Translations under genes and position numbers: made by a program
Notes under the pieces: model-generated
The model's database searches: none
The model's input: only the letters and a program-made list of their open reading frames with translations
What the model was told of the DNA's origin: nothing
In this document: piece by piece, positions 5,514-50,593 of the stretch
How the letters are laid out: each line of letters begins with the position of its first letter
Position numbering within the stretch: position 1 is the first letter of the stretch
From: Candidatus Yonathbacteria bacterium RIFOXYD1_FULL_52_36
GTDB taxonomy: Bacteria > Patescibacteriota > Minisyncoccia > Phycocordibacterales > UBA1539_B
Direction of reading: 5' to 3'
Length of the DNA stretch: 64,000 nucleotides
Assembly: GCA_001823605.1 (NCBI GenBank)
Contig: MHUZ01000034.1
Coordinates: 38,589 to 102,588, forward strand

Positions 5514-6110
5514 TTAAAGTTCTTCGCCGCAGACCTGCTTTACGATATCTTGATGCACCTCTTCGATACTACGCTCGCCGTTAATATCCAAAAATGTGTA
5601 GTATGGATCAGACCGAAAGTGTTCGATCACCGGCAAGACTTCCTTCTCAAACCAATCGAGGCGGCTATTGATATACTCATCAGTATCATCTTTGCGGCCG
5701 CGTGCTTTCATGAGGTCGTAGGAGAACTGGCGAGAGGTGTTGAGATATACGATATGCGGATTCTTGACGCCATAAAACTTGAACGCTGAGGTGAGGATTG
5801 ATGCCTCATGAATACGCCGCGAAACACCGTCCAAGATCAGGTGTTCATTGCCGGTGTACTGTTTGAGGAGGAAATCAGACCAGATCCAAACAGGCAAAAA
5901 CTCTGGCATGAGTTTTCCATGTTCCATAACCTCCTTGGTAAGCTTGTTGGAGAGGCCGTCGCCAAGCGTAAAGTCGCGAAGGCGGGCGCCCGTCTCCATA
6001 TAGAGCACTTCTTTGTCCCCTTTTTCTTTGAGGCAATCTATGAGCAGTTTTGCCTGAGTGCCCTTTCCTGAGCCTGATTTTCCAAAAAATACGAGTGTTT
6101 TTGCGTCCAT
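5514..6110 (-). CDS. adk: adenylate kinase
   Basis: P-loop GKSGSGKGTQAKLL. Position after secY as in the spc operon. Start at MDAKTLVFF. Confidence 0.8.
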   Translation of the reverse strand: MDAKTLVFFGKSGSGKGTQAKLLIDCLKEKGDKEVLYMETGARLRDFTLGDGLSNKLTKEVMEHGKLMPEFLPVWIWSDFLLKQYTGNEHLILDGVSRRIHEASILTSAFKFYGVKNPHIVYLNTSRQFSYDLMKARGRKDDTDEYINSRLDWFEKEVLPVIEHFRSDPYYTFLDINGERSIEEVHQDIVKQVCGEEL

Positions 6111-6225
6111 TTGATATATAAGGATAGATACTAATGCAATACGACCACCATACCACAGAGCACCCGTTCGCCCAAACAAAATCCCCGCAGAGCGGGGATT
6201 TTGTTTGGGTAATTAAATGAGCGTT

Positions 6226-27768: not shown

Positions 27769-27787
27769 TATCTAAGAAAATCAATCA

Positions 27788-27820
27788 AATCAAACGGCTC
27801 ACCCAAGGTGAGCCGTTTGA
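27788..27820. repeat. AACGGCTCA-family palindromic terminator (copy c) 3' of rpmB
   Basis: ATCAAACGGCTCACC-CAA-GGTGAGCCGTTTGAT. Confidence 0.85.
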
Positions 27821-27828
27821 TTTTCAAT

Positions 27829-27853
27829 AAAAAGCGGGGCAATACCCCGCTTT
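27829..27853 (-). terminator. rho-independent terminator of the 27881-28183 gene, convergent with copy c
   Basis: AAAGCGGGG-CAATA-CCCCGCTTT plus T-tract on the minus strand. Confidence 0.6.
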
Positions 27854-27880: not shown

Positions 27881-28183
27881 TTAAACCTTCACCTTCGCCT
27901 CATTTTCTTCTGCGTGTTGTATTGCCCCATTGTTTTCTAAATAGTTCCAAGCAAGCTCGTCGGGGGTCGGCTCACGGCCGAGCTTCTTTCCGGTGACATA
28001 TACATTAAAGGGGCTTAGAACCTTCTCCACCTGCATCTGCAGATACTCTTCGCCGCTGATCGTGGGATCATCAGCCAGCTTATTCATAGACACCTCCATA
28101 CAGTGGAATACTACACCTAAGCACGGTACTTCTGTCGATGAGTATATTCCTCCCGCTACTAAATTCAACTCAAGGCTGTGCAT
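27881..28183 (-). CDS. small hypothetical protein
   Basis: ORF with a downstream terminator. True start possibly at the internal Met (MEVSMNKLADD...). Confidence 0.4.
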   Translation of the reverse strand: MHSLELNLVAGGIYSSTEVPCLGVVFHCMEVSMNKLADDPTISGEEYLQMQVEKVLSPFNVYVTGKKLGREPTPDELAWNYLENNGAIQHAEENEAKVKV

Positions 28184-28186
28184 AAC

Positions 28187-29041
28187 TTATCGCACCCGCC
28201 AGATAGTTTTTCCGTCGCTTTTAAAAATGATCGTGCCTTGATCGGCGGTGTTTAAAACTTCGATGTCTGCTTCTTGAAATGTATCGAGAGTTTCCTTGTG
28301 GGGATGGCCATAGGAATTGTTGCTGCCGGAAGAGATGACTGCCGTCTGTGGACTGACTGCCGCAACAAATTCCGGAACACTCGACGTGCGCGAGCCATGA
28401 TGTCCTGCTTTTAAAATATCGCTGTTGACCTTCTCTCCGTCGAGCACGAGCACGTATTGTTCTATCTCGTCCGGTGCATCACCTGGAAACATCACGGACG
28501 TATCGCCGTAGATCAATCGCCCCACGATCGAGCCGGTGTTGGTCGTAACGCCTGAAACATCTCGATCGGGGAACAGCACTTCAAAGTGCGCGCCGCCCCC
28601 AAGGTCGATCACGGTCCCGCGCCGTGCCACGATACGCGTAGCATGGGTGTCTCCTTTTTGTTTCAGAGCCTCATACACGCCGGATGCGCCGATGGTTCCC
28701 GGCTCTACCACCGCGCCGATCCCATACCGCTCAAGAAGCGGAATGAATCCGGCAATATGATCCTTGTCCGGATTTGAAACAAGGATCACATTCACGGTGC
28801 GGTCAAAGAACGGCATCACCTCTGCAAGCGAACGGAGCATCCCACGGTCGGGTCCGCCGTCGATCAACATATCGCCACCGCCCGGCGCACGCACATAGAT
28901 CGCGTCCCCTTGTCCCACGTCGAGAAACGCAATGGTGAGGAGACGCGCATCAGCGCGATACGCTAGATACTGCCATCCAACAAGCGCACAAAAAATACTT
29001 CCCCCAATAACGAAAGCGGTGATCCGGTACGCATTCTTCAT
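28187..29041 (-). CDS. ComEC/Rec2-related metallo-beta-lactamase domain protein, encoded separately from the channel part
   Basis: N-terminal TM then LDVGQGDAIYVRAPGGGDMLIDGG and HHGS motifs of the ComEC C-terminal lactamase_B domain. Confidence 0.8.
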   Translation of the reverse strand: MKNAYRITAFVIGGSIFCALVGWQYLAYRADARLLTIAFLDVGQGDAIYVRAPGGGDMLIDGGPDRGMLRSLAEVMPFFDRTVNVILVSNPDKDHIAGFIPLLERYGIGAVVEPGTIGASGVYEALKQKGDTHATRIVARRGTVIDLGGGAHFEVLFPDRDVSGVTTNTGSIVGRLIYGDTSVMFPGDAPDEIEQYVLVLDGEKVNSDILKAGHHGSRTSSVPEFVAAVSPQTAVISSGSNNSYGHPHKETLDTFQEADIEVLNTADQGTIIFKSDGKTIWRVR

Positions 29042-29043
29042 TC

Positions 29044-29700
29044 ATGAATGGTACAATGCGACGTATGAGCGAAGCAACTATTGAAATGATCATCATCGCC
29101 GCAAGCTACGGCGGCATATTCCTCATGATGATCTTGAATGGCGCGGTAAGCTTCCCCTCAAGTCAGGTCCTCTACATTTTGGTGGGGTACTTCATTGCGC
29201 GCGGAGACCTCGCGCTTGTGCCCGCGGTCATTGCAGGCAGCATCGGCAACATGATCGGCAATATGATCCTCTACGAGATCGCGCGACGCAAGGGCATCGA
29301 GTACATCACGCGCTTCAAACTCTTCCCTCCCGAGATCACTCGTCGCACTGAGATCGCATTCAAAAAACGCGGGGCGTGGTTTGTCTTTGTGGGGAAACTG
29401 CTTCCTGCGATCAAAGTGTTCGTGCCGATCCCTGCCGGTATCGGCAAAATGCACCGCGGGCTTTTTGCTGCGATCATGGTCGTTGCTACGAGTATTTGGG
29501 TACTTCCCTTCACTGCTGTGGGATACTACTTCGGAAAATCGCGTGATGTCTTTGGCGCATACGCATTCGTGCTTCTTGCGATCGCGATCGTGGTCGTCGC
29601 ACTCTTCTTCCGTTATTTAAAGAGCAGTGATGTGGAGCGAGAACTCACCGCACTCGACGAGGGAGAGAGTCGCCACACCAACACGCCGAGTGCTCCGTAG
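29044..29700 (+). CDS. DedA/SNARE-associated family membrane protein
   Basis: Polytopic membrane protein with DedA-like layout. 3' end overlaps the convergent comEC channel gene by 88 nt. Confidence 0.7.
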   Translation: MNGTMRRMSEATIEMIIIAASYGGIFLMMILNGAVSFPSSQVLYILVGYFIARGDLALVPAVIAGSIGNMIGNMILYEIARRKGIEYITRFKLFPPEITRRTEIAFKKRGAWFVFVGKLLPAIKVFVPIPAGIGKMHRGLFAAIMVVATSIWVLPFTAVGYYFGKSRDVFGAYAFVLLAIAIVVVALFFRYLKSSDVERELTALDEGESRHTNTPSAP

Positions 29701-31139
29701 CTGAGAGCCAGAAACCAAACAGGAAGTACCGGGGTCGTTGCGAGTGCGAACGGAAACGAACCAAACCATTCCGCCATACGGAACACATACGCGGAGAGTG
29801 CTTGTGCGAACATACCAAATGGAAACGCCAGAGCAGGAGTAATGAATCCGAGGACCCCTGCAACAAACCCCACGCCCATAATGATCGGTACTACGGGCAA
29901 CACGAGGATGTTCGTGGCGAGGCCAACCACGCTCGCATTGCCGATTGAGAATAGGAGGAGCGGGAGCACAAACACTTCTGCGGCGATCGTCCCCGCGATG
30001 ATCGTGCGTAGTCCAAACGTTTGAGGAACCCGTCCAAGTATTCGTTCAACATGCGGCGCAAACACAATGAGTCCGAGCGTCGCCATAAATGATAACTGAA
30101 ATGAAAGATCGTAAAGAAGAATATGCGGCCGATGTAAAACCATCGCCACGCCGGCGATCACGAGCCCTCGCAAAAGATCATTTGGTCGTCCGAGCGCACG
30201 CGCCAGAACCACCAAAAGCGCCATGATACTCGCGCGTACGACCGTGGACCCTGCACCGGCAAGCAGGGCGAAGAGTACAATGCTCACACTACCGGCGGCA
30301 AACGAAACTGCGCGCGGCAAAAACGCCGTCATGCGCATGAGCGCTTCAGCAACAATGGTGATGTTGTAACCCGAAAGGACGATGATGTGCACGATCCCCG
30401 CATTACGCAGGAGCTCAAGCAGGCGCTCTCCGAGCGATTGCTTCGCACCCAAGAGCATTCCTGCGACCAACGAGGATTCCGGCTCTTCAATACTACGCCC
30501 CAGCGATCCTATGAATGCACCTTTAAGGTCATACAGTGAGCGCTTGAGAGCACTCCCTCCTTCGCCGTCTTCTTGGGTCACGCGGGGAAATGCAATTTCG
30601 TATCCAATGCTGTCCTTTGCAAGGAATCGCTCGTAGTTGAACACACGCCCATCATCACCTTTAAATGATTCGGGGATTTTCAAAATTCCTTCCGCACGAA
30701 TACGATCGCCGTAGGAAAATGCGGGGTACGTCGACACTGAAATGCGCACCCGAATATCTGTTTCGGTATCTGCGACGCGTTCAGCACGAATTACCAAAAA
30801 TGTTTTTGCATCACGTTCATCGGGCTCATCAGCAACAAAACCCTGCACCGCCACGCGCGTGCCGATGAACGACTCAAGGGACACATCACGAAGCGTTCGC
30901 TCTTCATACTCGTATCGAACCGCACCCGCCATTCCGGCAACAAGAGCCCCTGAAACAAGAATGAGTGATATCGATCGTCGCGGTACCGCAAACACAAGCG
31001 CAAGCGCTGCCGCTACGGCAAGCACTTTCAAGAGAACCATTCCGCCTAAAAGCGTCTGCACAAGCACGCCACCAATGAACCCTGCGCAAAGTAGTGCGAG
31101 GATCCGATCGCGCATACCTACGCGTTCCGTGCACCCCAC
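29613..31139 (-). CDS. comEC: ComEC/Rec2 DNA-uptake channel (DUF4131 OB-fold plus Competence domain), no fused MBL domain
   Basis: N-terminal TM helices, OB-fold region (RVAVQGFVADEPDER), Competence-domain helices (HIIVLSGYNITIV). 508 aa. Confidence 0.8.
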   Translation of the reverse strand: MGCTERVGMRDRILALLCAGFIGGVLVQTLLGGMVLLKVLAVAAALALVFAVPRRSISLILVSGALVAGMAGAVRYEYEERTLRDVSLESFIGTRVAVQGFVADEPDERDAKTFLVIRAERVADTETDIRVRISVSTYPAFSYGDRIRAEGILKIPESFKGDDGRVFNYERFLAKDSIGYEIAFPRVTQEDGEGGSALKRSLYDLKGAFIGSLGRSIEEPESSLVAGMLLGAKQSLGERLLELLRNAGIVHIIVLSGYNITIVAEALMRMTAFLPRAVSFAAGSVSIVLFALLAGAGSTVVRASIMALLVVLARALGRPNDLLRGLVIAGVAMVLHRPHILLYDLSFQLSFMATLGLIVFAPHVERILGRVPQTFGLRTIIAGTIAAEVFVLPLLLFSIGNASVVGLATNILVLPVVPIIMGVGFVAGVLGFITPALAFPFGMFAQALSAYVFRMAEWFGSFPFALATTPVLPVWFLALSYGALGVLVWRLSPSSSAVSSRSTSLLFK

Positions 31140-31837
31140 GCTTGGGCGATCGCACGCTCGTCATCAGCAGAAAATGCTTTTTTGAATCTCGCCCCTTTCA
31201 CTCCTTTCACTCGCTTCTCGCATTCCGCCCAACTGGTGTGACGCATAAAATGTCCATCAACAAAACTTACGTATGAAAATGCTTTGGCACGGGAACGTTC
31301 GCGCGTAGCCGAACGTGCTTTCTGTTTTTCCTCATCGTACGAAACATTCAAAATATCCGGTGAATACTTTTCAAGTGACCCATGATATAGGTTCGGAATA
31401 TCGTCATCAGCAAATGCGGTCGCAATCTCATCGGCACGTTCATTCCCCGGAAGACCCGCGTGCCCCGAAATGCGGTTCCACGTGATCGAGAGCGGTGTGG
31501 CAACTTCATCGAGGCGTTCCCAGAGATCTCGATTTTCCACCGGCGTCTTTGTGCTCGTGATCCAATTGTTGCGCTTCCATCCTTTCACCCATTTCGTGAT
31601 GCCATTCACCACATAGCTTGAATCCACGTACATAATGACGGGCTTACTCTTTCCCTTCACATGCGCGAGCGCTTCAATGGCTGCCAAGAGCTCCATCTTG
31701 TTGTTCGTCGTGTGTTTATCCCCGCCGCCAAGCTCGGTGACCGTTTCACCATCCACCACAATAGACCCCCACCCGCCAGGCCCGGGATTCCCGCGCGAAC
31801 TGCCGTCGGTGAAAATAACAATAGAGGTATCGCTCAT
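31118..31837 (-). CDS. rnhA: ribonuclease HI with a C-terminal hybrid-binding (RNase_H1_N/Cauli_VI-like) domain
   Basis: N-terminal RNase H catalytic core (IVIFTDGSSRGNPGPGGWG...TNNKMELLAAIEAL...ISGHAGLPGNERADEIA). C-terminal FSYVSFVDGHFMRHTSWAECEKRVKGVKGARFKKAFSADDERAIAQAW. Confidence 0.8.
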   Translation of the reverse strand: MSDTSIVIFTDGSSRGNPGPGGWGSIVVDGETVTELGGGDKHTTNNKMELLAAIEALAHVKGKSKPVIMYVDSSYVVNGITKWVKGWKRNNWITSTKTPVENRDLWERLDEVATPLSITWNRISGHAGLPGNERADEIATAFADDDIPNLYHGSLEKYSPDILNVSYDEEKQKARSATRERSRAKAFSYVSFVDGHFMRHTSWAECEKRVKGVKGARFKKAFSADDERAIAQAWGARNA

Positions 31838-31902
31838 ATAGCAATCAATATACCACGCGCAAAAGAAAACCCGCGGCAAGCCGCGGGGGAAACCATAAGA
31901 TT

Positions 31903-32589
31903 TCATTGTAAATTCGATACGGTGTCCTGAATTAAGTATCGTTCAATGACCACGCGTTCAGAGGTAGTGAATAGATCACCCTGTTTCTCTAAAAGAGACC
32001 TGCTGAGGTTTACGAGCGCCACGCCTTTCACGTTGTGGATACTTAATCTATCGTATCCGGACCCTGACCATTCGCCGTTGCAGATCTTCTTGAAGAGGAT
32101 CGCACGGATGTTGGTCCCTGAAATTGCGATACCAAGTGCGTCCATCACCCCGCTTCGATCATAGCGATCGTACATGCTGTTAGGGATGGGATCATCGTGC
32201 CAGGTTGCCCCCGGGTACCACGAACTGGGATCGAAGTAATCGCGATAGTTATATATCAACCCAGGAACTTCGACCTGAAACAGTTCCGCATGTTCCAGGG
32301 ACGTCGCATGCCCTATCCATATCCGCCACGAAGGGTCAAAGAAGATCGTTTTATCCTTCCACAATCCAAATCGTGATTCCACCGTTCTGTCGAAGGTGAG
32401 TCCGACGCATGACTCGAACCCTGTCGGCAATTTTTTTGTTTCCAAAATGCCGTGCAGGGTGGCTTCGAATCGTACCGGATCTACCGGATCACCCGGTTGT
32501 GTTAGCGTGCACCGGATCCATGCCCGCCCAAGGCCTCGGAGCATCTGTTCCGCCTTAGCCCGACCATTTGCTGTTGCGATCTCGTTCAT
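31903..32589 (-). CDS. hypothetical protein (228 aa)
   Basis: Intact ORF, Trp/Asp-rich. No family recognised. Confidence 0.5.
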   Translation of the reverse strand: MNEIATANGRAKAEQMLRGLGRAWIRCTLTQPGDPVDPVRFEATLHGILETKKLPTGFESCVGLTFDRTVESRFGLWKDKTIFFDPSWRIWIGHATSLEHAELFQVEVPGLIYNYRDYFDPSSWYPGATWHDDPIPNSMYDRYDRSGVMDALGIAISGTNIRAILFKKICNGEWSGSGYDRLSIHNVKGVALVNLSRSLLEKQGDLFTTSERVVIERYLIQDTVSNLQ

Positions 32590-32658
32590 GCCACAACCTC
32601 CCCTATAAAGTCTCTGGGCATTATACAGAGATACTGATAGGACGCAATCAAAACCCCG

Positions 32659-32997
32659 CTATGAAGCGGGGCAATAGAGGTGCTGTATTGAAAGAACGGA
32701 GCGCCGGTGAATGTGTTCTAAAATCCCCCAACGATCTGGAACGGGGATCGAGTATATGAACCACCCGAGCCGTGGTGCAATAAGAATAGTTCTTCCATGA
32801 AGAATGGTGCCATCTTTGTGCGTAAATACACCCAGTTCGAACTGGTCACCAAGATCAGCAACCCACTCCACTTTTACAAACCACGAATGAGTCGGATCAT
32901 CGCAAAACAATATTTTAAGGATACTTCCTGGGCAACACGAGCCTAGCGTGTTCATTGCACGATTAAATTCTGGGTTTACTTGCCTTTTCTTGAGCAT
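32659..32997 (-). CDS. hypothetical protein (112 aa) whose stop codon lies in the loop of its own terminator hairpin
   Basis: ORF ends inside AAAACCCCGCT-ATGA-AGCGGGG (32650-32676). Confidence 0.35.
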   Translation of the reverse strand: MLKKRQVNPEFNRAMNTLGSCCPGSILKILFCDDPTHSWFVKVEWVADLGDQFELGVFTHKDGTILHGRTILIAPRLGWFIYSIPVPDRWGILEHIHRRSVLSIQHLYCPAS

Positions 32998-33085
32998 TCG
33001 GAACCCTCCTCACCATAATCATTTCCATCTCTGCCCTCGTTGTACTATCGTTCAAAAAGCATGTCAATACAGTGAACTGGCCTCC

Positions 33086-34771
33086 TTACATTACGTCCAT
33101 GATGCGCAGCCGCAATTCCGGTCGGCCGCGGAACATCGACTTCTCAAGTGTTGCGTAGAGATCTATCCGTGCACCCGCCACCGGTTTTACTTTGAACGAT
33201 TCATCGGTCGCAAAAAATCCGATCGCAGAAACTTTTTGTCCACGACCGTTACGAAATGAGAGCTCGAGGTGATTTTTTTCTTTCCCGAACATGCGCACCT
33301 CAAACACCTCAATGCCTTTGAGTACAAATATTGGTTTAGGATTCTCTACACCGAATGGTGCGAGTTTTTCAACGACATCCCACGTCTTCCATGCCACATC
33401 ATCAATCGTCAGTTCTGCATCCGCAATGATCGCACGATCATCTGCCGTCTTTTTTTCGAGCCGTTCATACGCTTCCAGGATCGCATCTTCCAAAAAATGT
33501 ACGTTCTCGTGTGATACCGAGAATCCGCCCGAGTATTCGTGCCCTCCAACATTCAAGAAAAATCCTTCGCGCACCGAGGTCATGAGCTTCACCACATTGA
33601 TCGATCCGTCAGAACGACATGAGCCCTTGATGTGCTCGCTCTCTGCTCGTCCCCACACGAATGCCGGACGCCCATAATCTTCCATGAGCTTGTTCGCGGC
33701 GAGCCCCAAGACGCCTGGACGCCACAGGGGATTTCCTACCACGATCACCTTGCGGAGTTCGCGCATTTCAAGATTGTGTCGCGCCTCCTTGATCATAGTG
33801 GCCACGATTCCCTTACGCGTATCATTAAGGCTGTTTAGATGATTCGCCAGATGCTCAGCGCGCGCAGGATCAGTGGTTGAGAGCAGCTCAAACGCCTCGA
33901 ACGGAGTGCTCATGCGCGATGCAGCATTGATACGCGGTGCGATCATGAATCCCACATCGTCTTCAGCAAGATATGCCTGAGAAACACCTGCTTTCTGTAA
34001 AAGTATTTTGAGCCCGGGGCGCTTGCTCTTACGAAGCACCTTCAGTCCAAAGTATGCAAGTGCACGATTCTCTTTTTTGAGCGGCACCATGTCTGCAATA
34101 GTGGAAAGTCCCGCCATGTCCAAAAGCCATTTCTCAAACCCTTCCGGAATTTTTGCACGAAGTTCCGCTGGTGCACGGGCAATGAGTGCCTGCGAAAGTT
34201 TCCATGCAACACCCGCGCCGCAGAGCATGTTGTCGGGATATGTGTCACCTTCTTGTTTTGAATTAAGGATCGTATACGCGGGCGGAAGCACTTCTTGTGG
34301 TAAGTGGTGGTCCGTCACAATGACATCGACCCCGAGCTCCTGCGCACGGGTTACTGACACCACGTCCGCAATACCGCAATCAACCGTGATGATGAGCTTC
34401 ACGCCCTCGTCGGCAAATTTCTCAACTGCGTTCAAGTTGAGGCCATACCCTTCCTCGTGACGATGCGGAATATAGTTCTTGAAGTGCGGATATTCGAATT
34501 TTTTTAGCATATCGTGGAGCACGACCGAGCCAGGGATGCCATCGCAATCGTAGTCCCCATAGACAACAATGCTTTCATTGCGCTCCATTGCGGAAAAAAT
34601 ACGCTCCACCGCACGCTCCATATTAAGGATCCCGAACGGATCGCCAATGTCGCGCTCATAGGAAGGGTTCAAAAACACTTCGGCTTCTGCTGTATTAGTG
34701 ATTCCCCGCTTGCGAAGAAGCGTCGCGAGAAGTGGCGGATATCCCGCGAGATCGTCAGTCATGGAGCGCAT
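33086..34771 (-). CDS. recJ: single-stranded-DNA-specific exonuclease RecJ
   Basis: DHH motifs (VVYGDYDCDGIPGS, DHH) and DHHA1 domain. Start ambiguous: 34771, 34762 or 34804. Confidence 0.85.
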   Translation of the reverse strand: MRSMTDDLAGYPPLLATLLRKRGITNTAEAEVFLNPSYERDIGDPFGILNMERAVERIFSAMERNESIVVYGDYDCDGIPGSVVLHDMLKKFEYPHFKNYIPHRHEEGYGLNLNAVEKFADEGVKLIITVDCGIADVVSVTRAQELGVDVIVTDHHLPQEVLPPAYTILNSKQEGDTYPDNMLCGAGVAWKLSQALIARAPAELRAKIPEGFEKWLLDMAGLSTIADMVPLKKENRALAYFGLKVLRKSKRPGLKILLQKAGVSQAYLAEDDVGFMIAPRINAASRMSTPFEAFELLSTTDPARAEHLANHLNSLNDTRKGIVATMIKEARHNLEMRELRKVIVVGNPLWRPGVLGLAANKLMEDYGRPAFVWGRAESEHIKGSCRSDGSINVVKLMTSVREGFFLNVGGHEYSGGFSVSHENVHFLEDAILEAYERLEKKTADDRAIIADAELTIDDVAWKTWDVVEKLAPFGVENPKPIFVLKGIEVFEVRMFGKEKNHLELSFRNGRGQKVSAIGFFATDESFKVKPVAGARIDLYATLEKSMFRGRPELRLRIMDVM

Positions 34772-34802
34772 TGTAGCACATACCACATGGTATACTTTTC
34801 CC

Positions 34803-35219
34803 ATGCATAACGATTGCTTATTTTGCAAGATAATCGCGGGAGAGATCCCCTCCACAAAAGTGTACGATGACGAGCACGTACTCGTATTTCTTGATATTCA
34901 CCCCGTGAACATCGGGCACACACTCGTAATCCCAAAAACACATCACACAAACCTCTATGAAACGCCTGATGAAATACTTGCGCATCTCGCCATCATCGTC
35001 AAAAAACTTTCAATCGCAGTCAAAGAGGCAGTCAGTGCTGACGGCATCAACATTGAAATGAACAACGACCCCGTTGCAGGGCAGATCATCTTTCATGCGC
35101 ACATCCACATCGTTCCGCGCTTCGCAGGCGACGGCTTCACTCACTGGCAAGGCGCACGGGATTATGCAGAAGGTGAGTCCGAAACTATTGCAAAAAAAAT
35201 ACACGCACGTCTCAAGTAA
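34803..35219 (+). CDS. HIT-family (histidine triad) hydrolase
   Basis: MHNDCLFCKIIAGEIP...HAHIHIVPR triad. Confidence 0.85.
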   Translation: MHNDCLFCKIIAGEIPSTKVYDDEHVLVFLDIHPVNIGHTLVIPKTHHTNLYETPDEILAHLAIIVKKLSIAVKEAVSADGINIEMNNDPVAGQIIFHAHIHIVPRFAGDGFTHWQGARDYAEGESETIAKKIHARLK

Positions 35220-40823: not shown

Positions 40824-42035
40824 CTAGATATTATTCATGACCGAATACATCGGCGAGATCATCGAGATCGCAAAGAATCCAACGCCACCTCCGATCACGA
40901 GCATGAGGATCGGCTCAATAATGGTTGCCATGTCTTTCGTCGCCGCTTCAACCTCTGCTTCGTAGAATGACGCAACGCGCATGAGCATTTCTGAGAGCTT
41001 GCCGGTCTCCTCACCCACTTCGACCATCTCGCCCACCAGGATCGGGTAGATATTGTCTGCCTCTGCGAACGCCACTGAGAGCGCGGTTCCTTTTTGCACG
41101 CCCTGCGATGCCTTTTCGAGCACCTCTTTGTAGTATGAATTCTGGAGCACATCACGCGTAATGTTGATGGACTCGATAATATCCACGCCGGAAGAAAGGA
41201 GCGAGGAAAGCGTGCGCGCGGTGAGCGCCGAGTTTGCTTCTTTGGCGATCCCCGAGACCACCGGCATGTGGAGCACGAACCACTCAAAACTGCGCCTGCC
41301 TCTCGGCGTACGGAGCGCCATGATAAAACCTGTTACCAACACCACGAATCCCAGCAACACCCAAAGCCCATAATTCTGGAGACTATCGCTTATAAAAATG
41401 ATTGCCTTGGTCGAAGCAGGAAGATCACCACCGATCTCCTTGAATGTCCCAATGAGCGTGGGCACCACATAAATGAACATGAGGACCGCAATGATGAGCA
41501 TTGCCGAGATGACCACCGAAGGATAGATCATCGCGCCCTTGATCTTCTTGCGTAGGTTGTAGCTTTTTTCAAGCTGGTTGCCGATCACCGTAAGCGCCTG
41601 TGAAAGGTTGCCTGACTCTTCTCCTGCGCGCACCATGGAAACAAAGAGCGTCGAGAACACCTTTTCGTGCTTGCCCATCGCGTCGGAGAGACTGTTACCT
41701 TTGCTGATCTCTTCGTTTAGGTCGTGGAGGATGCCCTTGAACTTTATGTTCTGGGTTTGCTTCTCAAGGACCGAGAGTCCGCGCGAAAGTGAAAGCCCTG
41801 CATCGATCATCGCCGAAAGATTTTTGGCGAACACGATACGGTCCTGCATCTTGATACGCGTGAGGTACTTGCTCACGTCAATATTCATACCCTTCTTCTC
41901 GACCTCATCGATCGCGATCACCTCTTTGCCTTGTGCTTTGAGCTCTTTGGCGAGCGCGAACTTGTCCGCCGCGTCAGAATCCCCCTCAGTGATTGCGCCG
42001 GAACTTTCTCGTACTTTGTAATGGAATGTAGACAT
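40824..42035 (-). CDS. pilC: type IV pilus assembly platform protein PilC (GspF family)
   Basis: Two T2SSF repeats. 403 aa. 3 TM segments. Confidence 0.85.
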   Translation of the reverse strand: MSTFHYKVRESSGAITEGDSDAADKFALAKELKAQGKEVIAIDEVEKKGMNIDVSKYLTRIKMQDRIVFAKNLSAMIDAGLSLSRGLSVLEKQTQNIKFKGILHDLNEEISKGNSLSDAMGKHEKVFSTLFVSMVRAGEESGNLSQALTVIGNQLEKSYNLRKKIKGAMIYPSVVISAMLIIAVLMFIYVVPTLIGTFKEIGGDLPASTKAIIFISDSLQNYGLWVLLGFVVLVTGFIMALRTPRGRRSFEWFVLHMPVVSGIAKEANSALTARTLSSLLSSGVDIIESINITRDVLQNSYYKEVLEKASQGVQKGTALSVAFAEADNIYPILVGEMVEVGEETGKLSEMLMRVASFYEAEVEAATKDMATIIEPILMLVIGGGVGFFAISMISPMYSVMNNI

Positions 42036-42039
42036 GGGA

Positions 42040-43794
42040 TTATTCGGACACCACGCGGAAGATCTCTTCGATGCTCGTGAGCCCCTTCGCGGCTTTATAG
42101 ATACCGTCTTCGATCATCGTGATCATCTCTTCTTTCTTTGCCTGCGTTTCGATCTCGGCGGCCGTGGATCCCTTGATCACCAGCTCTTTGATCGTGGGCG
42201 ACATTTTCAAAATCTCGTGGATCCCGATGCGTCCCTTGTAGCCATCTTCACACTCATCTGATTTTTTCGCACGATAGAACGGAATGTCACCCCAATCCTG
42301 ATCATCCTTGATGATCTTCTCTTCTTTGAGCACGCCGAGCACGCGATCAAGGTCAATGATCTTGCTGAGACGTGCGATCTCATCATCGTTAAGCAAATAG
42401 CGTTCTTTGCCCGCGTCACACAAACGGCGCACGAGGCGCTGTGCAATGATCACGTTGACCGTCGAAACAATAAGGAACGGCTCAACACCCATGTCGATCA
42501 TGCGCGGGATCGCACCCGCAGCAGAGTTGGTGTGGAGTGTCGAGAGCACCAGGTGTCCCGTGAGTGACGCGTTGATTGCGAGCGATGCCGTTTCTTGGTC
42601 ACGCACCTCTCCCACCATGATGATGTCCGGGTCTTGACGCATGAGCGTACGGAGGCCGTTCGCAAAGGTGAGGCCGATCTCCGATTTCACCTGCGTCTGA
42701 TTCACGCGCGCCATTTGGTATTCGATCGGATCCTCGATCGTCGAGATGTTCACCTCGGGCGTATTCAAAATATCGAGCATTGTATAGAGCGTCGTGGTCT
42801 TTCCTGATCCCGTCGGTCCTGTGGTGAGGAGGAGTCCCACCTTTTGCTTCATGGCATCATGGATGCGCTCAAGTCCTAGGCCGTGAAAACCAAGGCCTTC
42901 GAGCGTAAATCCTGACGATGAGTCCCTCAAAAGACGCATGACGGTCTTTTCACCAAAGTATGTCGGGAGTGTCGAGACGCGGAACGATACTTTCTGATCG
43001 GCGGTCTCGATCTTGAAGCGTCCGTCCTGAGGAAGACGCTTTTCATCGAGCTTCAAGTTCGAAAGCACCTTCAAGCGTGCCGTAATGCCCGGAGCCACAT
43101 CTTTGGGGAGCACCATCGCGTCATGGAGAATGCCGTCAATGCGATACCGAATGACCATTTGTCCTTCCATCGGCTCGATATGAATATCTGACGCTCCCTG
43201 CAGAATGGCGTGGTTGAGCAGCGTATCCACGATCTTCACGATCGGCAGATCTTCAGCAAGCTCTTTCAGGTCTTTTTCTGACTTCTCGCCCCCTTCTTCA
43301 TCCGAAAGCGATTTTACCGATACGGCTTCTTTCTGAATGATGTCACCGAATTCTGACTTGAGGTCTTTTTGGTATTGGACGAGCGCCCCTTTGAGCGAAT
43401 CCTGATCGGTGAGACGGGGGAGAATCTTGAGTCCCACCTTTTTCTTGACGAATTCGATGGCCGTCAGGTTGTCGGTGTCGAGCATCGCCACCTCGAGCGC
43501 CGTGGTGGTCTTTTTGAACGCCACAATGTTGTGTTTGCGGGCGATCGGCTCCGGGATCATCGAAAGCACTTCAAAATCGATCTTCTGACCTTTGAGTGAG
43601 ACGAAGGGGATGCCGAGAATGTACGCTTCTGTTCGGCGCAGATCGTCTTCAGTGACTTTGCCATCGCTTACCAAAATTTCACCGAGGTAGCGCCGTTTGT
43701 CGTGCGCCTTCTTGAGGGCAGCATCAAGGTCAGACGAGGGAATAAGTCCCGCATCGAGGAGAAACTCACCAAGTTGTTCGTCGCGAACGTTCAT
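42040..43794 (-). CDS. pilB: type IV pilus assembly ATPase PilB (GspE family)
   Basis: N-terminal T2SSE_N domain. Walker A TGPTGSGKTTTLY, Asp and His boxes, tetracysteine motif. Confidence 0.9.
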   Translation of the reverse strand: MNVRDEQLGEFLLDAGLIPSSDLDAALKKAHDKRRYLGEILVSDGKVTEDDLRRTEAYILGIPFVSLKGQKIDFEVLSMIPEPIARKHNIVAFKKTTTALEVAMLDTDNLTAIEFVKKKVGLKILPRLTDQDSLKGALVQYQKDLKSEFGDIIQKEAVSVKSLSDEEGGEKSEKDLKELAEDLPIVKIVDTLLNHAILQGASDIHIEPMEGQMVIRYRIDGILHDAMVLPKDVAPGITARLKVLSNLKLDEKRLPQDGRFKIETADQKVSFRVSTLPTYFGEKTVMRLLRDSSSGFTLEGLGFHGLGLERIHDAMKQKVGLLLTTGPTGSGKTTTLYTMLDILNTPEVNISTIEDPIEYQMARVNQTQVKSEIGLTFANGLRTLMRQDPDIIMVGEVRDQETASLAINASLTGHLVLSTLHTNSAAGAIPRMIDMGVEPFLIVSTVNVIIAQRLVRRLCDAGKERYLLNDDEIARLSKIIDLDRVLGVLKEEKIIKDDQDWGDIPFYRAKKSDECEDGYKGRIGIHEILKMSPTIKELVIKGSTAAEIETQAKKEEMITMIEDGIYKAAKGLTSIEEIFRVVSE

Positions 43795-43914
43795 GGGTGC
43801 TTTGGTCAAAGTATACCACGACAATTCGCGCAACGCTGGGGATTAGTATGATTTTCCGATCATGCAAAAATCCCAGAAGATCATTCTGGGGAGGTCCTGG
43901 CTTCTCCAGGGAGA

Positions 43915-44125: not shown

Positions 44126-45325
44126 TTAATTTTTCTTATTTAAGGACGATGGAACAAAACCGTTTTTCTCCAGGACATAAAATATACCCCGTAGTAAATA
44201 ATTATTGATAAAACCAATCGTGTACACCCTGCTCTTCCCGGGCACAGGACGAAGCATTTCCTTATCTTTAAGTCGCTTGAGAATGCGCGAGCGCTGAACG
44301 GGTGATTCTTTTCCGATGATCACATCGAGGTCTGATGATTTGACGCTCATTGATTTGCTTTTAACCAAAGCGGTTAAAATGCTGAACTCACGTTCAGTAA
44401 TAAGTTTTCGTTCAAGCGCATACGACAAAGACGGTATCAGAATTGTCTCGGTTATATACTTCAGATCAAGCAAGCGATCAATTTTTTCGATCTCCTCTCT
44501 CAGTCCCTCAAGAACGTACGCACACCACCGTAACACCTGTTCTTGCTCACCAGTATCCGCAAGTGCCAAGTTTGCATAGTATTCATTTCGATCCATGCAA
44601 AAGATCGCTGTCGGGTTGAGAATTCTTCCGTTATGGACCTTGAAGCCCTGCTTAATGAGCAGTGCGTAGGTAAACATACGAATTAAACGTCCGTTGCCGT
44701 TATCAAACGGGTGAATCCACGCCATACGATGATGAGAGAGTGCCGTGACCAAGAGGTCGTTCTGGGGACTAGTGTCTGCGTTCACAAAAGCAATAAGCTC
44801 CTCAAAGTAATCCGGCACTTTCACCATATCGGGTGGGATATGTGATGAACCTTGAATTCCGACATTGATCGGTCGCAGACCACCTGGGTAACGAGACCCT
44901 TCTCCGGATGGCGGTGGAGTAAGACCATCCACAATGATCTTGTGCAATTCTGAAATGTGGGCACGCGTGATTATTCCACCCTCCGTAATGGTCTCTTCAA
45001 TGAATTTAATTGCTCGCTCAATGTTAAAAATCTCTCGAATGGATTCCTCTTTGGTATCTTTCGGAACCTGGTCAATGATCTTTTCGACGAATTCTGCAAG
45101 AGTTGTATGATTCCCTTCAATACGCGCAGATCCGAGGCTCTCCATCAGCTGAAAAATATCTTTCAGCTGAAAGAAAATGTACGGCGGCACTGGTCCGCCA
45201 AGCTTTTTTACGCGCAACTTTTCAAGCTCGACAATGGTGCTGGCGAGCTCCGACCCCCACGCCGGTTCGTATATTTTTAGAGGGATTTCTTTGAATTCCC
45301 CTTTATTTACATCTTTAGATTCCAT
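44126..45325 (-). CDS. Fic/DOC family protein (AMPylase-type) with inhibitory helix motif
   Basis: Fic core HPFDNGNGRLIRM. N-terminal SARIEGN matches the (S/T)xxxE(G/N) inhibitory motif. Lower GC than the core genome. Confidence 0.85.
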   Translation of the reverse strand: MESKDVNKGEFKEIPLKIYEPAWGSELASTIVELEKLRVKKLGGPVPPYIFFQLKDIFQLMESLGSARIEGNHTTLAEFVEKIIDQVPKDTKEESIREIFNIERAIKFIEETITEGGIITRAHISELHKIIVDGLTPPPSGEGSRYPGGLRPINVGIQGSSHIPPDMVKVPDYFEELIAFVNADTSPQNDLLVTALSHHRMAWIHPFDNGNGRLIRMFTYALLIKQGFKVHNGRILNPTAIFCMDRNEYYANLALADTGEQEQVLRWCAYVLEGLREEIEKIDRLLDLKYITETILIPSLSYALERKLITEREFSILTALVKSKSMSVKSSDLDVIIGKESPVQRSRILKRLKDKEMLRPVPGKSRVYTIGFINNYLLRGIFYVLEKNGFVPSSLNKKN

Positions 45326-47842: not shown

Positions 47843-50593
47843 CTAAGTTACTGCTACCATCTTTCTTTTTACGGAAGTTTTCTTGTTTTCGCTTGCAGTG
47901 TATTTGCAATACAGTTCAAACAGGAACTCGATTCTCTCCTCTTTATTCGAAAACTTTTTGCCGTAGCAGGCGTCAACAGCGCGGTCGAGGTCGGTGTGGG
48001 CTTTGACCAGGTCGGGTGGCATTGTGTTGGGGTCATAGAGATCAGCGAGAGAACTCTCGGGAAACCGAGCTCGCGCATCGAGTACTCTTTGCGCACACTC
48101 CTCTACTTTTTTCCTGTGCTCGTCCGACACACTCTCGGGCCATGGAAAATTATTGTAAACGATATCTTTTGAGTAGCGATACCGACTTTCAAGCCGTCCG
48201 CAGGTGTATCTCACCCATGTCATATGCATAAGTGACTGCAAGATACCAAGGTGAAACAAGGTCGCCCCAGACCCGATAAGGCAGAGGTTGCTCGTAATAA
48301 CACTCTCATCCATAAAACCCAAGGGGATATAAGCCCTCCTTTCCGATGAGACACTGGGAATAAGCAGATATCGCCCATTTGGAAAATTTTCTACATGGAA
48401 TCGTGTCGGCGTTTCCGCAAGTTTTTGCGTTGGTGGACTCACGCTATCTAATCGAAGTTTTCGCACAGCTTCAATGCGCTTTAATACTTCAGGCATTTCA
48501 CGTAATTCATGGGGCGGAGTATCTCCAAGCCACAAACACCAACGCTCATACCCATTCAAGAACTCATCTGCTCCGATCCACTTACGAAACAATTTCTCAC
48601 TTTTTGGCTCATGTTTTATAAATTCATTCTTTTCCTCGGGTGTAAAAAGGTAATTCCCACCATCGATCGGCTTGTTCCCAATTCCGATATTTGGAACATC
48701 TTCCACGATCGGCTTCGAGCGTGATTCCACAAACACGTCTTCGCCTGCAACAAGATATGCATTAATATGCTCCACCTCTTTTTCCTTCGGCTCGCTTTTT
48801 ATCGTCTCATATTCGTAGAGATATTTCTTTGGAGTATCCACGCACGCAAAGCCAACAATCACGCAGTACACCGCCGCCACCCCTGGCGCGTCATTGTTCC
48901 ACTTGAAAGTCTGGTGCGCAAAATGAATAATGATGCCGTATTTTTCTTTGAGACGCTTCCACAGAATACCCACTTGCTCACCTTGGCAGATCGAGTTGGT
49001 GGACACAAACGCAGTTTTGATATTGGTGCCAACCATATACCTTGACGCCTTTTCATACCACGCTGTTACAAAATCGAGATTACCTGCGCCTTTTGCATTA
49101 TCAAAGATATTAAGAAATGCTTCTTTTTGTTCTTTTTCCATTAACCGTGCTCCAACAAACGGCGGATTGCCAAGAATATACGAGAGTTTGTGTTTTGGCA
49201 CAACCTCTTCCCAATCTTTTGTAAGCGCATTGTCGTTCACGATCGTCGCGGGCTCACGAAGCGGGATGCGTGCGTACGGCTTGCCAAACTTCTCTGACAA
49301 AAGCTGGTTCATTTGATGATCGGCGAGATACATCGCTACGCGGGCGATCAGTGCGGGAAATTCTTCGATCTCTATTCCGTAGAACTGATTGACGTTGATG
49401 CGCGAAATGTCTTCAACCCCCAATATTGCTATCTGGTCGTCTTTTTTCTTTCGCAAAAGAATTTCGAGTTCCAGTTTTCGCAGTTCACGGTACGCAACAA
49501 CGAGAAAGTTTCCACACCCGCACGCAGGATCAAGAAACGTGAGGTTTGCAAGCTTATTGTGAAACGCATCGAGCTTCTTGGCGTCATACTTCACCTGATC
49601 GAATTCAACATGCAATTCATCAAGAAAGAGCGGTTGAATGACCTTCAAAATATTCTTTTCGGAAGTGTAGTGCGCACCAAGTTGCCTGCGTGTGTTCTCA
49701 TCCATCATCCCTTGGAACAGGGATCCGAAGATTGATGCAGATATCTGTGACCAATCAAAACTACAACATTTCAATAACTTGAGATACGCGGTTGCGTCCA
49801 AGGAAACAGGCGCGATCTGCTCTGCGAAAATACCGCCGTTGATGTATCCGAACATCATCAACTGCTCGTCTAAATTTGTCTGCCTCTTTTCCTTTGGCGT
49901 ATTGAGGATGTGGAAAATTTGCATCAGATGAATCCCCAGATCGGACCCGTCGTGATTGATTCGATTTTCTACGTATGAGCGAAAATGATTTTTAGGGAAA
50001 ATACCTGTGTCGTCGGCAAAAAGACAAAAGAGGATGCGGATGAGAAAAACTTCGAGGTCGTGCCCACTGTACCCCGTCTTGGCAAGTTCGTTATGGAAAT
50101 CAGCCATCAACTTCACGGCTTCAATGCTCACCTCCTCTTCTTTTTCGTAGGCGCGGACAGTGTATCCAGATATAAACCCAAAGAGATCTATGTTTTTGTG
50201 GAGCTCTTTAAGTAAAAATTCTTCTTGAGTGTTCTTGTCCAGATCGTACAATCGTATTTTTTCAAAGTCAGAAACGACTACATAGCGCGGAAGTTCCACG
50301 TCTTTCAACCCGGGGAAATAATCCTTCGCTTGTGTGTACGCCTTGTCCAAATTTTTGCCGCGAGTTTTGTGTTCCGCAAGCATCACGCCTTTCCATAGAA
50401 CATCAATGAATCCCTGTGCCCCACCCTGCTTTTTTACAAAGTGCTCAAAGGAAGCGACGCGTCGGCGTGGAACGCCAAACACCTCAAAGAAGCCGTCCCA
50501 AAAGCTTTTTGCCTCTGCGTCTTCGTTGGATTCTTGCTCCCATTCGTGCGCAAAGGTGATTGCGCGATTTCGGATTTCGTTGATGCTTATCAT
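47843..50593 (-). CDS. MmeI-family type IIL/IIG restriction-modification enzyme (fused endonuclease, N6-adenine methyltransferase and TRD)
   Basis: N-terminus MISINEIRNRAITFAHEWEQESNEDAEAKSFWDGFFEVFGVPRRRVASFEHFVKK closely parallels MmeI. Methyltransferase motif IV LGNPPFVGA. 916 aa. Confidence 0.85.
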   Translation of the reverse strand: MISINEIRNRAITFAHEWEQESNEDAEAKSFWDGFFEVFGVPRRRVASFEHFVKKQGGAQGFIDVLWKGVMLAEHKTRGKNLDKAYTQAKDYFPGLKDVELPRYVVVSDFEKIRLYDLDKNTQEEFLLKELHKNIDLFGFISGYTVRAYEKEEEVSIEAVKLMADFHNELAKTGYSGHDLEVFLIRILFCLFADDTGIFPKNHFRSYVENRINHDGSDLGIHLMQIFHILNTPKEKRQTNLDEQLMMFGYINGGIFAEQIAPVSLDATAYLKLLKCCSFDWSQISASIFGSLFQGMMDENTRRQLGAHYTSEKNILKVIQPLFLDELHVEFDQVKYDAKKLDAFHNKLANLTFLDPACGCGNFLVVAYRELRKLELEILLRKKKDDQIAILGVEDISRINVNQFYGIEIEEFPALIARVAMYLADHQMNQLLSEKFGKPYARIPLREPATIVNDNALTKDWEEVVPKHKLSYILGNPPFVGARLMEKEQKEAFLNIFDNAKGAGNLDFVTAWYEKASRYMVGTNIKTAFVSTNSICQGEQVGILWKRLKEKYGIIIHFAHQTFKWNNDAPGVAAVYCVIVGFACVDTPKKYLYEYETIKSEPKEKEVEHINAYLVAGEDVFVESRSKPIVEDVPNIGIGNKPIDGGNYLFTPEEKNEFIKHEPKSEKLFRKWIGADEFLNGYERWCLWLGDTPPHELREMPEVLKRIEAVRKLRLDSVSPPTQKLAETPTRFHVENFPNGRYLLIPSVSSERRAYIPLGFMDESVITSNLCLIGSGATLFHLGILQSLMHMTWVRYTCGRLESRYRYSKDIVYNNFPWPESVSDEHRKKVEECAQRVLDARARFPESSLADLYDPNTMPPDLVKAHTDLDRAVDACYGKKFSNKEERIEFLFELYCKYTASENKKTSVKRKMVAVT

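Follow-up and report, generated by a model that had tools for sequence, protein, structure and literature searches.

Is a ComEC that comes as two genes, one for the channel and one for the nuclease, on either side of an antisense gene, a broken gene or a regular state of its lineage, and what would the nuclease do once it is separated from the channel? The question is raised by three adjoining genes in the stretch of DNA analysed here (64,000 nucleotides, hereafter the window), which is derived from a groundwater Parcubacteria (CPR) genome. They encode a ComEC channel (minus strand), a DedA/VTT-family membrane protein (plus strand), and a ComEC-type metallo-β-lactamase (MBL; minus strand). The comEC split is real, neither an error nor a one-off, and the window locus represents the ordinary state of its lineage.

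Gene layout of the locus

The channel ORF extends over positions 29613-31139 (minus strand, 508 aa at longest). Gene callers run on independent assemblies place its start at ATG 31115 and not at GTG 31139, giving a channel subunit of 500 aa (29613..31115). The ComEC-type MBL nuclease subunit (284 aa) is encoded at 28187..29041 on the same strand, 571 nt away from the channel ORF, with the DedA gene antisense in between. The longest DedA ORF covers 29044-29700 (plus strand, 218 aa); its start is most likely ATG 29065 and not the alternative ATG 29044, since every homologue alignment starts at residue 8 and this start is also called in two assemblies, and the likeliest form thus has 211 aa (29065..29700). 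The start codons of DedA and MBL are 23 nt apart with ATG 29065 and 2 nt apart with ATG 29044. The original prediction had placed these three ORFs correctly and had described DedA as a convergent gene between the two halves, which holds for its orientation toward the channel gene, whereas it is divergent from the MBL gene.

The predicted 88-nt overlap of the channel and DedA genes is exact (29613..29700, tail-to-tail). Here, the DedA tail (...SRHTNTPSAP) lies antisense to channel TM10, and the channel tail (...SSRSTSLLFK) lies antisense to the DedA segment FRYLKSSDVERE. An overlap of 88-94 nt is kept in relatives with 76-88% identity (loci L092, L081, and L093) and is missing in L082 (58% identity), L012, L016, and L020.

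Upstream of the channel gene, a minus-strand cluster (31118..34855) comprises RecJ (33086-34855), a hypothetical protein (31903-32589), and RNase H (31118-31906), with RecJ and RNase H assigned by Pfam. The RNase H gene ends 2 nt from the channel ATG, and the hypothetical protein and RNase H genes overlap or abut. The channel gene thus apparently shares an operon with RNase H, to which RecJ probably belongs as well; RecJ-RNase H-channel synteny was observed in about 25 loci. Directly 3' of the MBL gene follows a small conserved ORF of 100 aa without a family (27881-28183, minus strand), and beyond it a strong terminator-like hairpin of 17 bp (27823-27787, minus strand). No Rfam match for a structured RNA was found in the region at E<=0.1.

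Domain content of the two halves

The two halves cover complementary parts of ComEC in both Pfam and TIGR00361. In the channel ORF, the predicted DUF4131 (OB fold) and Competence domains were recovered by Pfam at residues 39-180 (E=4.5e-16) and 228-491 (PF03772, E=1.8e-46, 159 bits vs a cut-off of 23), respectively. Residues 12-75 form a hydrophobic block, which fits three N-terminal TM helices ahead of the OB fold. [quoted passage not shown] All of the 120 closest channel homologues are 378-522 aa long (most of them 480-520 aa) and carry no MBL domain.

The MBL ORF matches Lactamase_B (PF00753, E=3.4e-11), which places it in the MBL superfamily, and it spans TIGR00361 positions 416-663 (E=3.2e-37). 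Its own TM anchor and the motifs LDVGQGDA and HHGS are present as predicted, the anchor (residues ~4-30) being equivalent to TM11 of fused ComEC. All of the 120 closest homologues are stand-alone proteins. Among PDB sequences, the MBL matches 9ic4 (E=1e-35) and 30bt (E=9e-34, residues 534-792). The AF2 model (pLDDT 88.6) consists of a helix at residues 2-33 followed by an MBL fold, and its best Foldseek match is the ComEC MBL domain 9ic4 (TM 0.79/0.84; E=1e-24 vs 1e-15 for the next MBL). The structural search gave 150 PDB matches at E<=0.001, and 50 of 50 among the matches listed have the MBL fold. A grouping with non-ComEC hydrolases, which had been named as a possible objection, is not borne out, as the protein sides with the ComEC nuclease domains (9ic4 and 30bt best).

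The metal motifs of the MBL are D46, N90-x-D92-x-D94-H95, N168, D188, H214/H215, and H246/H248. They were compared with the Mn ligands H598, D600, D602, H603, motif III Asn, D700, and motif V His (N. glycerini numbering). D92, D94, H95, N168, D188, H214/H215, and H246/H248 are invariant in 23 MBL homologues. The first motif-II His (equivalent to H598) is replaced by Asn (N90) in the window clade. An H598A variant was virtually inactive in vitro (PMC12455585); Asn at this position could in principle ligate Mn.

The middle ORF belongs to the DedA/VTT family of ~200-aa proteins (VTT_dom/DedA PF09335, E=1.6e-12, 48 bits vs a cut-off of 34); its matches to the UptA and DedA NCBIfam models are weak and all under cut-off, so that it is placed in no subfamily.

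Reality of the split

Canonical ComEC is a single polypeptide, and a break of one comEC by an indel or by a recent DedA insertion, be it an error in sequencing or assembly or a pseudogene in decay, was considered as a rival. This single-polypeptide precedent is the sole support for such an explanation, to which we assign next to no probability. Four independent assemblies (ENA, JGI, and Logan) are 100% identical over 3.1 kb and gap-free, with no sign of an indel or a misassembly, and two shorter contigs are 100% identical over the parts that they cover. The halves lie 571 nt apart, a distance filled by well-conserved DedA coding sequence. Omega values of 0.07-0.13 for the channel, MBL, and DedA genes indicate strong purifying selection (0.073 for the channel against a relative with 88% identity, 0.10 for the MBL, and 0.077 for DedA), and the same arrangement is found in relatives with 58-88% identity. 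Flanking repeats and signs of mobile elements were not found.

Two specific candidates were tried and rejected. A frameshift or assembly artefact was ruled out by the identical independent assemblies together with the purifying selection, and a recent mobile insertion of DedA was discarded as the flanks hold no repeats, direct or inverted, other than short chance matches and the composition is unbroken.

Fission point and distribution

When the channel and MBL were aligned with eight fused Chloroflexota ComECs, the junction fell into a variable loop of 25-45 aa between two hydrophobic helices. The cryo-EM topology of full-length ComEC has the order TM10-CH1-TM11-linker-MBL (PMC13539106), with which the position of the window junction agrees. 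By alignment, the fission point, which the proposed comparison with the full-length protein was meant to locate, therefore falls into the little conserved cytoplasmic loop that joins TM10 to TM11 in an ancestral three-domain ComEC.

The distribution was examined in 80 species-representative loci. Among them, fused ComEC ORFs are confined to Chloroflexota-like and Myxococcales genomes; the Patescibacteria loci are split. RecJ-RNase H-channel-[slot]-MBL-M50 makes up a conserved backbone, in which the slot is the place between the two halves. In many Patescibacteria, the channel and MBL genes still abut or overlap, and 12 of the 80 loci hold abutting split pairs with no slot gene. An antisense Fe/Mn superoxide dismutase (SOD) gene lies directly upstream of the MBL gene in 19 of the 80 loci and an antisense DedA gene in six. 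Same-strand MBL-channel synteny persists down to 35-40% identity. In six Patescibacteria loci (L002, L022, L028, L039, L044, and L047), the MBL gene and the nearest channel gene are >6 kb apart.

In the Paceibacteria lineage to which the window genome belongs, an antisense accessory gene lies between the halves, and it usually encodes an Fe/Mn SOD. The occupant is DedA in two clades, one of them the window's own, and an antisense DedA was found in the slot in the window and nine further loci (same slot and orientation in L011, L012, L016, L018, L020, L077, L081, L082, L092, and L093). Many loci hold further genes in the slot, namely those for a methyltransferase, RNase III, IMPDH plus SDR, or malic enzyme. 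No SOD was found elsewhere in the window. Both DedA clades have a bootstrap of 100%. With respect to the origin of the DedA occupant, the RecJ tree gives one DedA lineage that takes in the abutting-type L023 (70%), the MBL tree joins the window clade with the SOD-type L001 (62%), and support in the concatenated tree is 30%.

The view that the split and its interrupting antisense gene are unusual could thus not be upheld. The split is the standard architecture in the lineage, with fusion essentially absent from CPR according to PMC6744442, and the interrupting gene is conserved in relatives, usually as SOD and not as DedA. The same paper gives OB and Competence ComEC in 86% of CPR genomes and an MBL fusion in only six. 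Full-text literature searches turned up no account of a CPR ComEC nuclease with a gene of its own.

Comparison with known ComEC systems

Canonical ComEC/Rec2 (B. subtilis; Neomoorella carbonis 30bt; TIGR00361) contains the same modules in the same order as the window genes, namely TM1-3, OB fold, Competence channel, TM11, and MBL nuclease, and the metal motifs of the window MBL are ComEC-type (H/N-x-D-x-D-H, motif III Asn, and bridging Asp). The window differs in having two genes, cut in the TM10-TM11 loop with an antisense gene between, in a nuclease gene with a promoter-like element of its own, and in the replacement of the first motif-II His by Asn. With the ComEC-type MBL on a separate ORF, the locus falls outside the single-polypeptide definition of ComEC/Rec2, and both halves stay below the TIGR00361 equivalog cut-off of 190 bits (56.5 and 128 bits).

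The OB and Competence architecture of the window channel is that of the CPR-type ComEC without MBL fusion (fam000603), as described by Meheust et al. (2019, PMC6744442). What the window adds to that account is a nuclease that has been kept as a TM-anchored protein of its own, with its synteny conserved. In S. pneumoniae, strand degradation is performed by EndA, so that the nuclease is likewise apart from the channel protein, and the ComEC of H. pylori is without an MBL domain (PMC8579336; PMC12455585). EndA, however, belongs to an unrelated nuclease family, whereas the separate nuclease of the window is the ComEC MBL itself with TM11. The C-terminal domain of S. pneumoniae ComEC, which is probably inactive, has Asn for the motif-II His like the window MBL (PMC8579336). 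MBL lipoproteins of Firmicutes/Negativicutes (L064, L065, L073, and L079) belong to the same subfamily (33-38% identity) and are also extracytoplasmic and membrane-tethered, but they carry a lipoprotein signal peptide in place of the TM11-like helix, and no channel gene lies within 6 kb of them.

Probable reassembly or an independent nuclease

We regard it as probable that comEC fission is ancient, fixed, and characteristic of Patescibacteria (CPR), and that its products act as two subunits that reassemble. The MBL subunit would consist of TM11 and an extracytoplasmic, presumably active Mn-type MBL nuclease, which would rejoin the channel subunit non-covalently on the outer side of the membrane. 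By analogy with full-length ComEC, rejoining may proceed via TM packing and a small interface between the OB loop and the MBL. The docked nuclease would then degrade the non-translocated strand, with ssDNA entering via the channel. In full-length ComEC, the MBL is connected with the channel by a flexible linker and positioned by a small conserved interface with the OB fold; TM11 was unresolved in one cryo-EM protomer (PMC13539106). In one cultivated Patescibacterium, transformation needs comEC (PMC10633639).

The MBL might instead be an independent surface-anchored nuclease, digesting extracellular DNA to scavenge nucleotides or acting in the manner of EndA, in both cases undocked, and its linkage to comEC would merely be left over from the fission. 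When isolated, the MBL domain of ComEC acts as a Mn-dependent nuclease (PMC8579336; PMC12455585), which fits the two-subunit model as well; it has endonuclease and 5'-3' exonuclease activity (PMC12455585), and it is thus active by itself. The OB-MBL interface is described as weak in the literature; soluble OB and MBL in trans showed no rate gain (0.29 vs 0.26 per min), and tethering of the two raised the rate ~7-fold (PMC12455585). The lack of an OB boost in trans favors the independent nuclease and counts against the two-subunit model, as does the unlinked MBL in several genomes; N90, the weak interface, and the TM11 unresolved in one cryo-EM protomer are further points against the latter. 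The promoter-like element of the MBL gene, the lipoprotein-signal MBLs that lack a channel gene within 6 kb and lie outside CPR (L064, L065, L073, and L079), and the lack of nucleotide synthesis in CPR, which are thought to scavenge DNA (PMC6744442), favor the independent nuclease as well. On the other hand, the window MBL has kept a TM11-equivalent helix and not a cleavable signal peptide, and same-strand synteny with the channel gene is maintained across deep divergence (35-40% identity). Moreover, DNA binding by the isolated domain is undetectably weak and it works efficiently only with a DNA-binding module close by (PMC12455585), and a Saccharibacterium grew without comEC, which speaks against an essential scavenging role of com there (PMC10633639). 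Taken together, we judge the independent nuclease to be unlikely.

Divergent spacer and possible regulation

Between the DedA and MBL starts lies a putative compact divergent promoter region (29042..29064). A -10 hexamer for DedA, TACAAT (29052-29057, plus strand), is preceded by TGg (29049-29051) and ends 7 nt before ATG 29065, and one for the MBL, TACCAT (minus strand, reverse complement of 29048-29053), lies 6 nt before the MBL ATG. Between them, the hexamers have 2 bp in common, a geometry found in both DedA clades. No Shine-Dalgarno sequence is present in the spacer, which indicates a leaderless-type geometry. TAnnnT was found 5-8 nt upstream of the start in 23 of 30 MBL genes and 19 of 30 slot genes, whereas 2000 shuffles gave 4.4-4.6 on average and 11-12 at most. 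In the divergent spacer, a generic sigma-70 scan was empty, so that the case for promoters depends on the positional -10 analysis. The MBL gene thus seems to be served by a leaderless-type promoter of its own, which stands back-to-back with the slot gene's. The suggested separate regulation of channel and nuclease is partly supported, by the -10-like box of the MBL gene and the apparent RNase H operon of the channel gene, both read from the sequence.

With 2 bp shared by the -10 boxes of the two strands, RNA polymerase might start only one of the two genes at any given moment. An excludon is an arrangement in which a long transcript from one gene runs antisense over an opposite neighbour and represses it. 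The slot and nuclease genes may accordingly form a regulatory unit, in which no more than one promoter fires at a time, so that nuclease expression would be coupled inversely to that of SOD or DedA (stress or envelope); alternatively, DedA may be silenced in an excludon-like manner by read-through from the channel operon. Two unrelated occupants share the same slot and antisense orientation with divergent spacers of 14-91 nt, the overlapping -10 geometry and the positional enrichment fit such a unit, and no terminator-like hairpin with >3 G-C pairs was found from the channel stop up to the MBL gene, in contrast to the 17-bp hairpin after the downstream ORF; terminator-like sites near the channel/DedA overlap are weak. 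Compact divergent promoters are, however, expected in small, gene-dense genomes anyway, the loci are phylogenetically related so that plain inheritance may explain the conservation, and many loci have extra slot genes or, in the 12 abutting pairs, none. Such a unit seems highly doubtful to us. A broader proposal, which we consider improbable, would make the slot functional, with the nuclease and SOD/DedA genes toggled by a bidirectional leaderless promoter, and the separate, membrane-tethered MBL a general answer to how ComECs lacking the C-terminal domain degrade the strand that is not imported. If true, fission would free nuclease dosage from the channel in these minimal cells, and the toggle would set it against stress, oxidative or of the envelope.

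Implications for ComEC in Patescibacteria

That CPR ComEC lacks the MBL fusion was known already from PMC6744442; the persisting separate nuclease was not described in the literature found. For annotation, two CPR "ComEC" genes should be treated with caution, as they are halves of one machine and not paralogues or pseudogenes. A natural two-piece ComEC can be used to test whether a covalent tether between nuclease and channel is needed, and also offers a route to the workings of the OB-MBL interface and to separate regulation of channel and nuclease. Nearly half of the sequenced ComECs have no nuclease domain, and how the non-transforming strand is handled is an open question (Silale et al. 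2021, PMC8579336). Our comparison suggests that Patescibacteria kept the nuclease, split off with TM11 as its anchor and usually beside the channel gene, which would provide a simple answer to that question for this group.

Split comEC genes in the window and in independent assemblies

ComEC is encoded by two minus-strand genes in the window. The channel ORF (29613-31139) carries Pfam domains DUF4131 (OB fold, residues 39-180) and Competence (228-491), whereas the MBL ORF (28187-29041) carries the Lactamase_B domain of the nuclease half. The place between them (the slot) is occupied by an antisense ORF with a VTT/DedA domain (29044-29700, plus strand). ORF reading and Pfam thus confirmed the three ORFs and the domain content of the original prediction. 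On the NCBIfam full-length ComEC_Rec2 model the two halves are complementary, with the channel ORF covering positions 123-367 and the MBL ORF 416-663 (E=3.2e-37). They match residues 12-485 and 534-792, respectively, of the 801-aa ComEC 30bt, a solved full-length structure, and the MBL ORF also aligns in sequence with the isolated ComEC nuclease domain 9ic4 (E=1e-35).

Gene callers start the channel gene at ATG 31115, with the stop of the RNase H gene 2 nt earlier. The DedA start is called at ATG 29065 in some assemblies, and all alignments of DedA homologues start from residue 8. The RNase H protein (31118-31906, minus strand) has a weak C-terminal match (residues 224-243) to the RNase H1 hybrid-binding (Cauli_VI) domain, which is usually N-terminal in RNase H1. 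The window also has type IV pilus genes at a distance of about 10 kb from comEC. They encode a PilC-like protein (T2SSF) and a PilB-like ATPase (T2SSE) that carries an MshEN domain, and in their vicinity lie genes for a complete restriction-modification enzyme of the MmeI type and for a Fic-domain protein (region coordinates 40824-43833, 44126-45325, and 47843-50593, all minus strand).

An assembly artefact as the cause of the split was ruled out. The identical MBL protein is found on 18 contigs (ENA, JGI, and Logan assemblies), and 28100-31200 is matched at full length, at 100% and without gaps, in four of six fetched contigs, the two shorter contigs matching in the parts that they cover. The order channel, antisense DedA, MBL is shared by relatives at 88%, 77%, 76%, and 58% MBL identity. 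Omega values (Nei-Gojobori) against the 88% relative are low (channel 0.073, DedA 0.077, MBL 0.10), and those against the 75-77% relatives are similar. Neither repeats flanking DedA nor a compositional break were found at the locus. The homologue search recovered the MBL protein at 100% but the channel protein at best at 94% over 74% coverage, followed by 75%. A 500-aa channel gene is nevertheless annotated on the same identical contigs, and the missing match probably reflects how the word-based filter selects candidates.

DedA and the channel gene overlap by 88 nt (29613-29700). Relatives at 76-88% identity have an overlap of 88-94 nt, but the 58% relative and more distant DedA-type loci have none, so that the trait is limited to the window's immediate clade. 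The C-terminal tail of DedA (SRHTNTPSAP), conserved in close relatives, is encoded antisense to channel TM10 and looks like the result of a stop-codon shift that extended DedA across the 3' end of the channel gene.

Distribution of the split and of the slot genes

The original prediction regarded the split as unusual, which the homologues contradict. For the MBL ORF, all of the best 120 homologues stand alone, their lengths ranging from 246 to 320 aa and mostly falling near 280-300 aa, and the best 120 of the channel ORF all consist of DUF4131 and Competence only (378-522 aa, most about 480-520). The architecture was classified at 80 loci of species-representative genomes, and fused ORFs of 721-868 aa proved to be confined to Chloroflexota/Dehalococcoidia-like genomes and probably one Myxococcales genome. 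Abutting or overlapping split genes were found at 12 of the 80 loci, almost all from Patescibacteria and one labelled Gammaproteobacteria. Their spacing ranges from a gap of 27 nt to an ORF overlap of up to 379 nt, the large overlaps arising where the longest-ORF call places the start of MBL too far upstream; at five loci no more than about 14 nt separate the stop from the start. A few genomes lack a channel gene within 6 kb of the MBL gene. One published survey had already described the ComEC-MBL fusion as essentially absent from CPR, with six genomes containing it (PMC6744442), so that split comEC is the norm of the lineage and not an oddity of the Yonathbacteria genome.

In a large Paceibacteria group the two halves share a strand, the channel gene coming first, and are separated by the slot; the conserved backbone reads RecJ, RNase H, channel, slot, MBL, M50 peptidase, S12, S7. 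The occupant in most relatives is not DedA but an antisense Fe/Mn superoxide dismutase (SOD), which separates the two halves in 19 loci and is the immediate upstream neighbour of MBL in 24. Among the homologous loci (L handles), SOD fills the slot in L001, L003-L005, L007, L008, L010, L013-L015, L019, L024, L025, L027, L029, L030, L033, L034, L040, and L083, and antisense DedA in the window, L011, L012, L016, L018, L020, L077, L081, L082, L092, and L093. Some loci hold additional slot genes (methyltransferase, RNase III, IMPDH and SDR, or malic enzyme). SOD is reported to be an oxygen-linked accessory gene in Patescibacteria (PMC8672522), and none is present anywhere in the 64-kb window. Two DedA clades (loci within L011-L020 together with L077, and the window with L081, L082, and L093) each have 100% bootstrap. 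The RecJ tree joins them in one lineage (70%), whereas the MBL tree groups the window clade with the SOD-type L001 (62%), which implies either more than one change of the slot gene or an exchange of one of the genes.

Fission point and nuclease domain

Full-length ComEC has 11 TM helices by cryo-EM, three of them preceding the OB fold, and its C-terminal part runs from TM10 through a short cytoplasmic helix, TM11, and a flexible linker to the nuclease domain (PMC13539106). When channel and MBL were aligned with eight fused ComECs of Chloroflexota origin, the break was located in a variable loop of 25-45 residues between two hydrophobic helices: the channel ORF stops 19 residues past the TM10 equivalent and the MBL ORF opens with the equivalent of TM11. 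The MBL family consensus has basic residues ahead of this N-terminal helix and acidic ones behind it, consistent with a predicted N-in, nuclease-out topology.

In a confident AlphaFold2 model of the MBL ORF (pLDDT 88.6), residues 2-33 form a long N-terminal helix ahead of the MBL fold. Among PDB structures the model matches 9ic4 best (E=1e-24, TM 0.79/0.84), with the next MBL protein nine orders of magnitude behind; the protein is therefore ComEC-type, as originally proposed, and does not group with non-ComEC MBLs.

Motif II reads N90-P-D-K-D-H (NPDKDH) in the window's clade and H-x-D/H-x-D-H in other ComECs, the N90 codon lying at 28772-28774 (minus strand). Asn also replaces the first His in L001, L003, L004, L007, L014, L021, L027, and L032, while this His is kept in other Patescibacteria and all fused ComECs. 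The H598A mutant at the equivalent position was virtually inactive in vitro (PMC12455585), and the Streptococcus pneumoniae ComEC domain, probably inactive, has Asn at the same position (PMC8579336). Given the strong purifying selection on the gene and the invariance of every other metal ligand, we would expect the MBL protein to be enzymatically active, with its first metal site altered.

Putative transcription signals

The start codons of MBL and DedA are 23 nt apart, and each is preceded at 6-7 nt by a -10-like hexamer: TACCAT for MBL (minus strand, reverse complement of 29048-29053) and TGgTACAAT for DedA (plus strand, 29049-29057), the two hexamers overlapping by 2 bp. No Shine-Dalgarno sequence was found in this divergent spacer. 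In the second DedA clade (L012, L020, L077), the whole spacer is 14 nt long and built on the palindrome TACTATAGTA, which gives a TACTAT -10 box 6 nt before both start codons simultaneously. A TAnnnT box lies 5-8 nt before the MBL start at 23 of 30 loci (peak at 6 nt), whereas 2000 shuffles of the MBL spacers averaged 4.4 (sd 1.9) and never exceeded 11; the slot gene is preceded by such a box at 19 of 30. Because the loci are related, neither count represents independent events. These sequence features suggest leaderless transcripts and a promoter of its own for MBL. The channel gene adjoins RNase H in an apparent operon, which lends some support to the proposed separate regulation of the two halves. 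Such regulation is not inherent to the fission, however, since the split genes abut in other Patescibacteria. Between a small ORF downstream of MBL and a convergent L28-like gene, two facing, strong terminator-like hairpins (27787-27853; 17 bp on the minus and 9 bp on the plus strand) may form a bidirectional terminator closing the minus-strand unit.

Possible arrangement of the two halves

The C-terminal domain of ComEC is a Mn-dependent nuclease required for efficient transformation (PMC8579336). In isolation it is active but binds DNA poorly; tethering to a DNA-binding module raised its rate about 7-fold, while soluble OB and MBL in trans gave no increase (PMC12455585). In full-length ComEC, a small, weak OB-loop interface places the nuclease at the channel entrance (PMC13539106). 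From these published results we infer that the TM11 anchor would hold the split nuclease in the membrane plane beside the channel subunit. If the halves associate there, native ComEC geometry would be recreated without a covalent link. Stand-alone ComEC-type MBLs also occur outside CPR, in Selenomonas, Clostridium, and relatives (L064, L065, L073, and L079; ORFs near 5840-6990). They carry lipoprotein-like signal peptides, and the surrounding 6 kb contain no channel gene, which suggests that ComEC-family nucleases tethered to the surface also occur independently of a split ComEC. That the MBL protein of the window is likewise an independent surface nuclease appears unlikely to us, and the TM11-anchored arrangement beside the channel is preferred.

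The components belong to known families, and some stand-alone halves are already labelled ComEC/Rec2 in databases. No account of a ComEC nuclease that persists as a separate, TM11-anchored gene was found in a full-text literature search, and none of the site of fission, the conservation of an antisense slot, or the putative back-to-back promoter. Strand degradation by ComECs without the C-terminal domain is an explicit open question in Silale et al. (PMC8579336). Split ComEC is real, lineage-wide, and experimentally useful, but its mechanism is unsurprising and its presence ordinary for the genome of the window.
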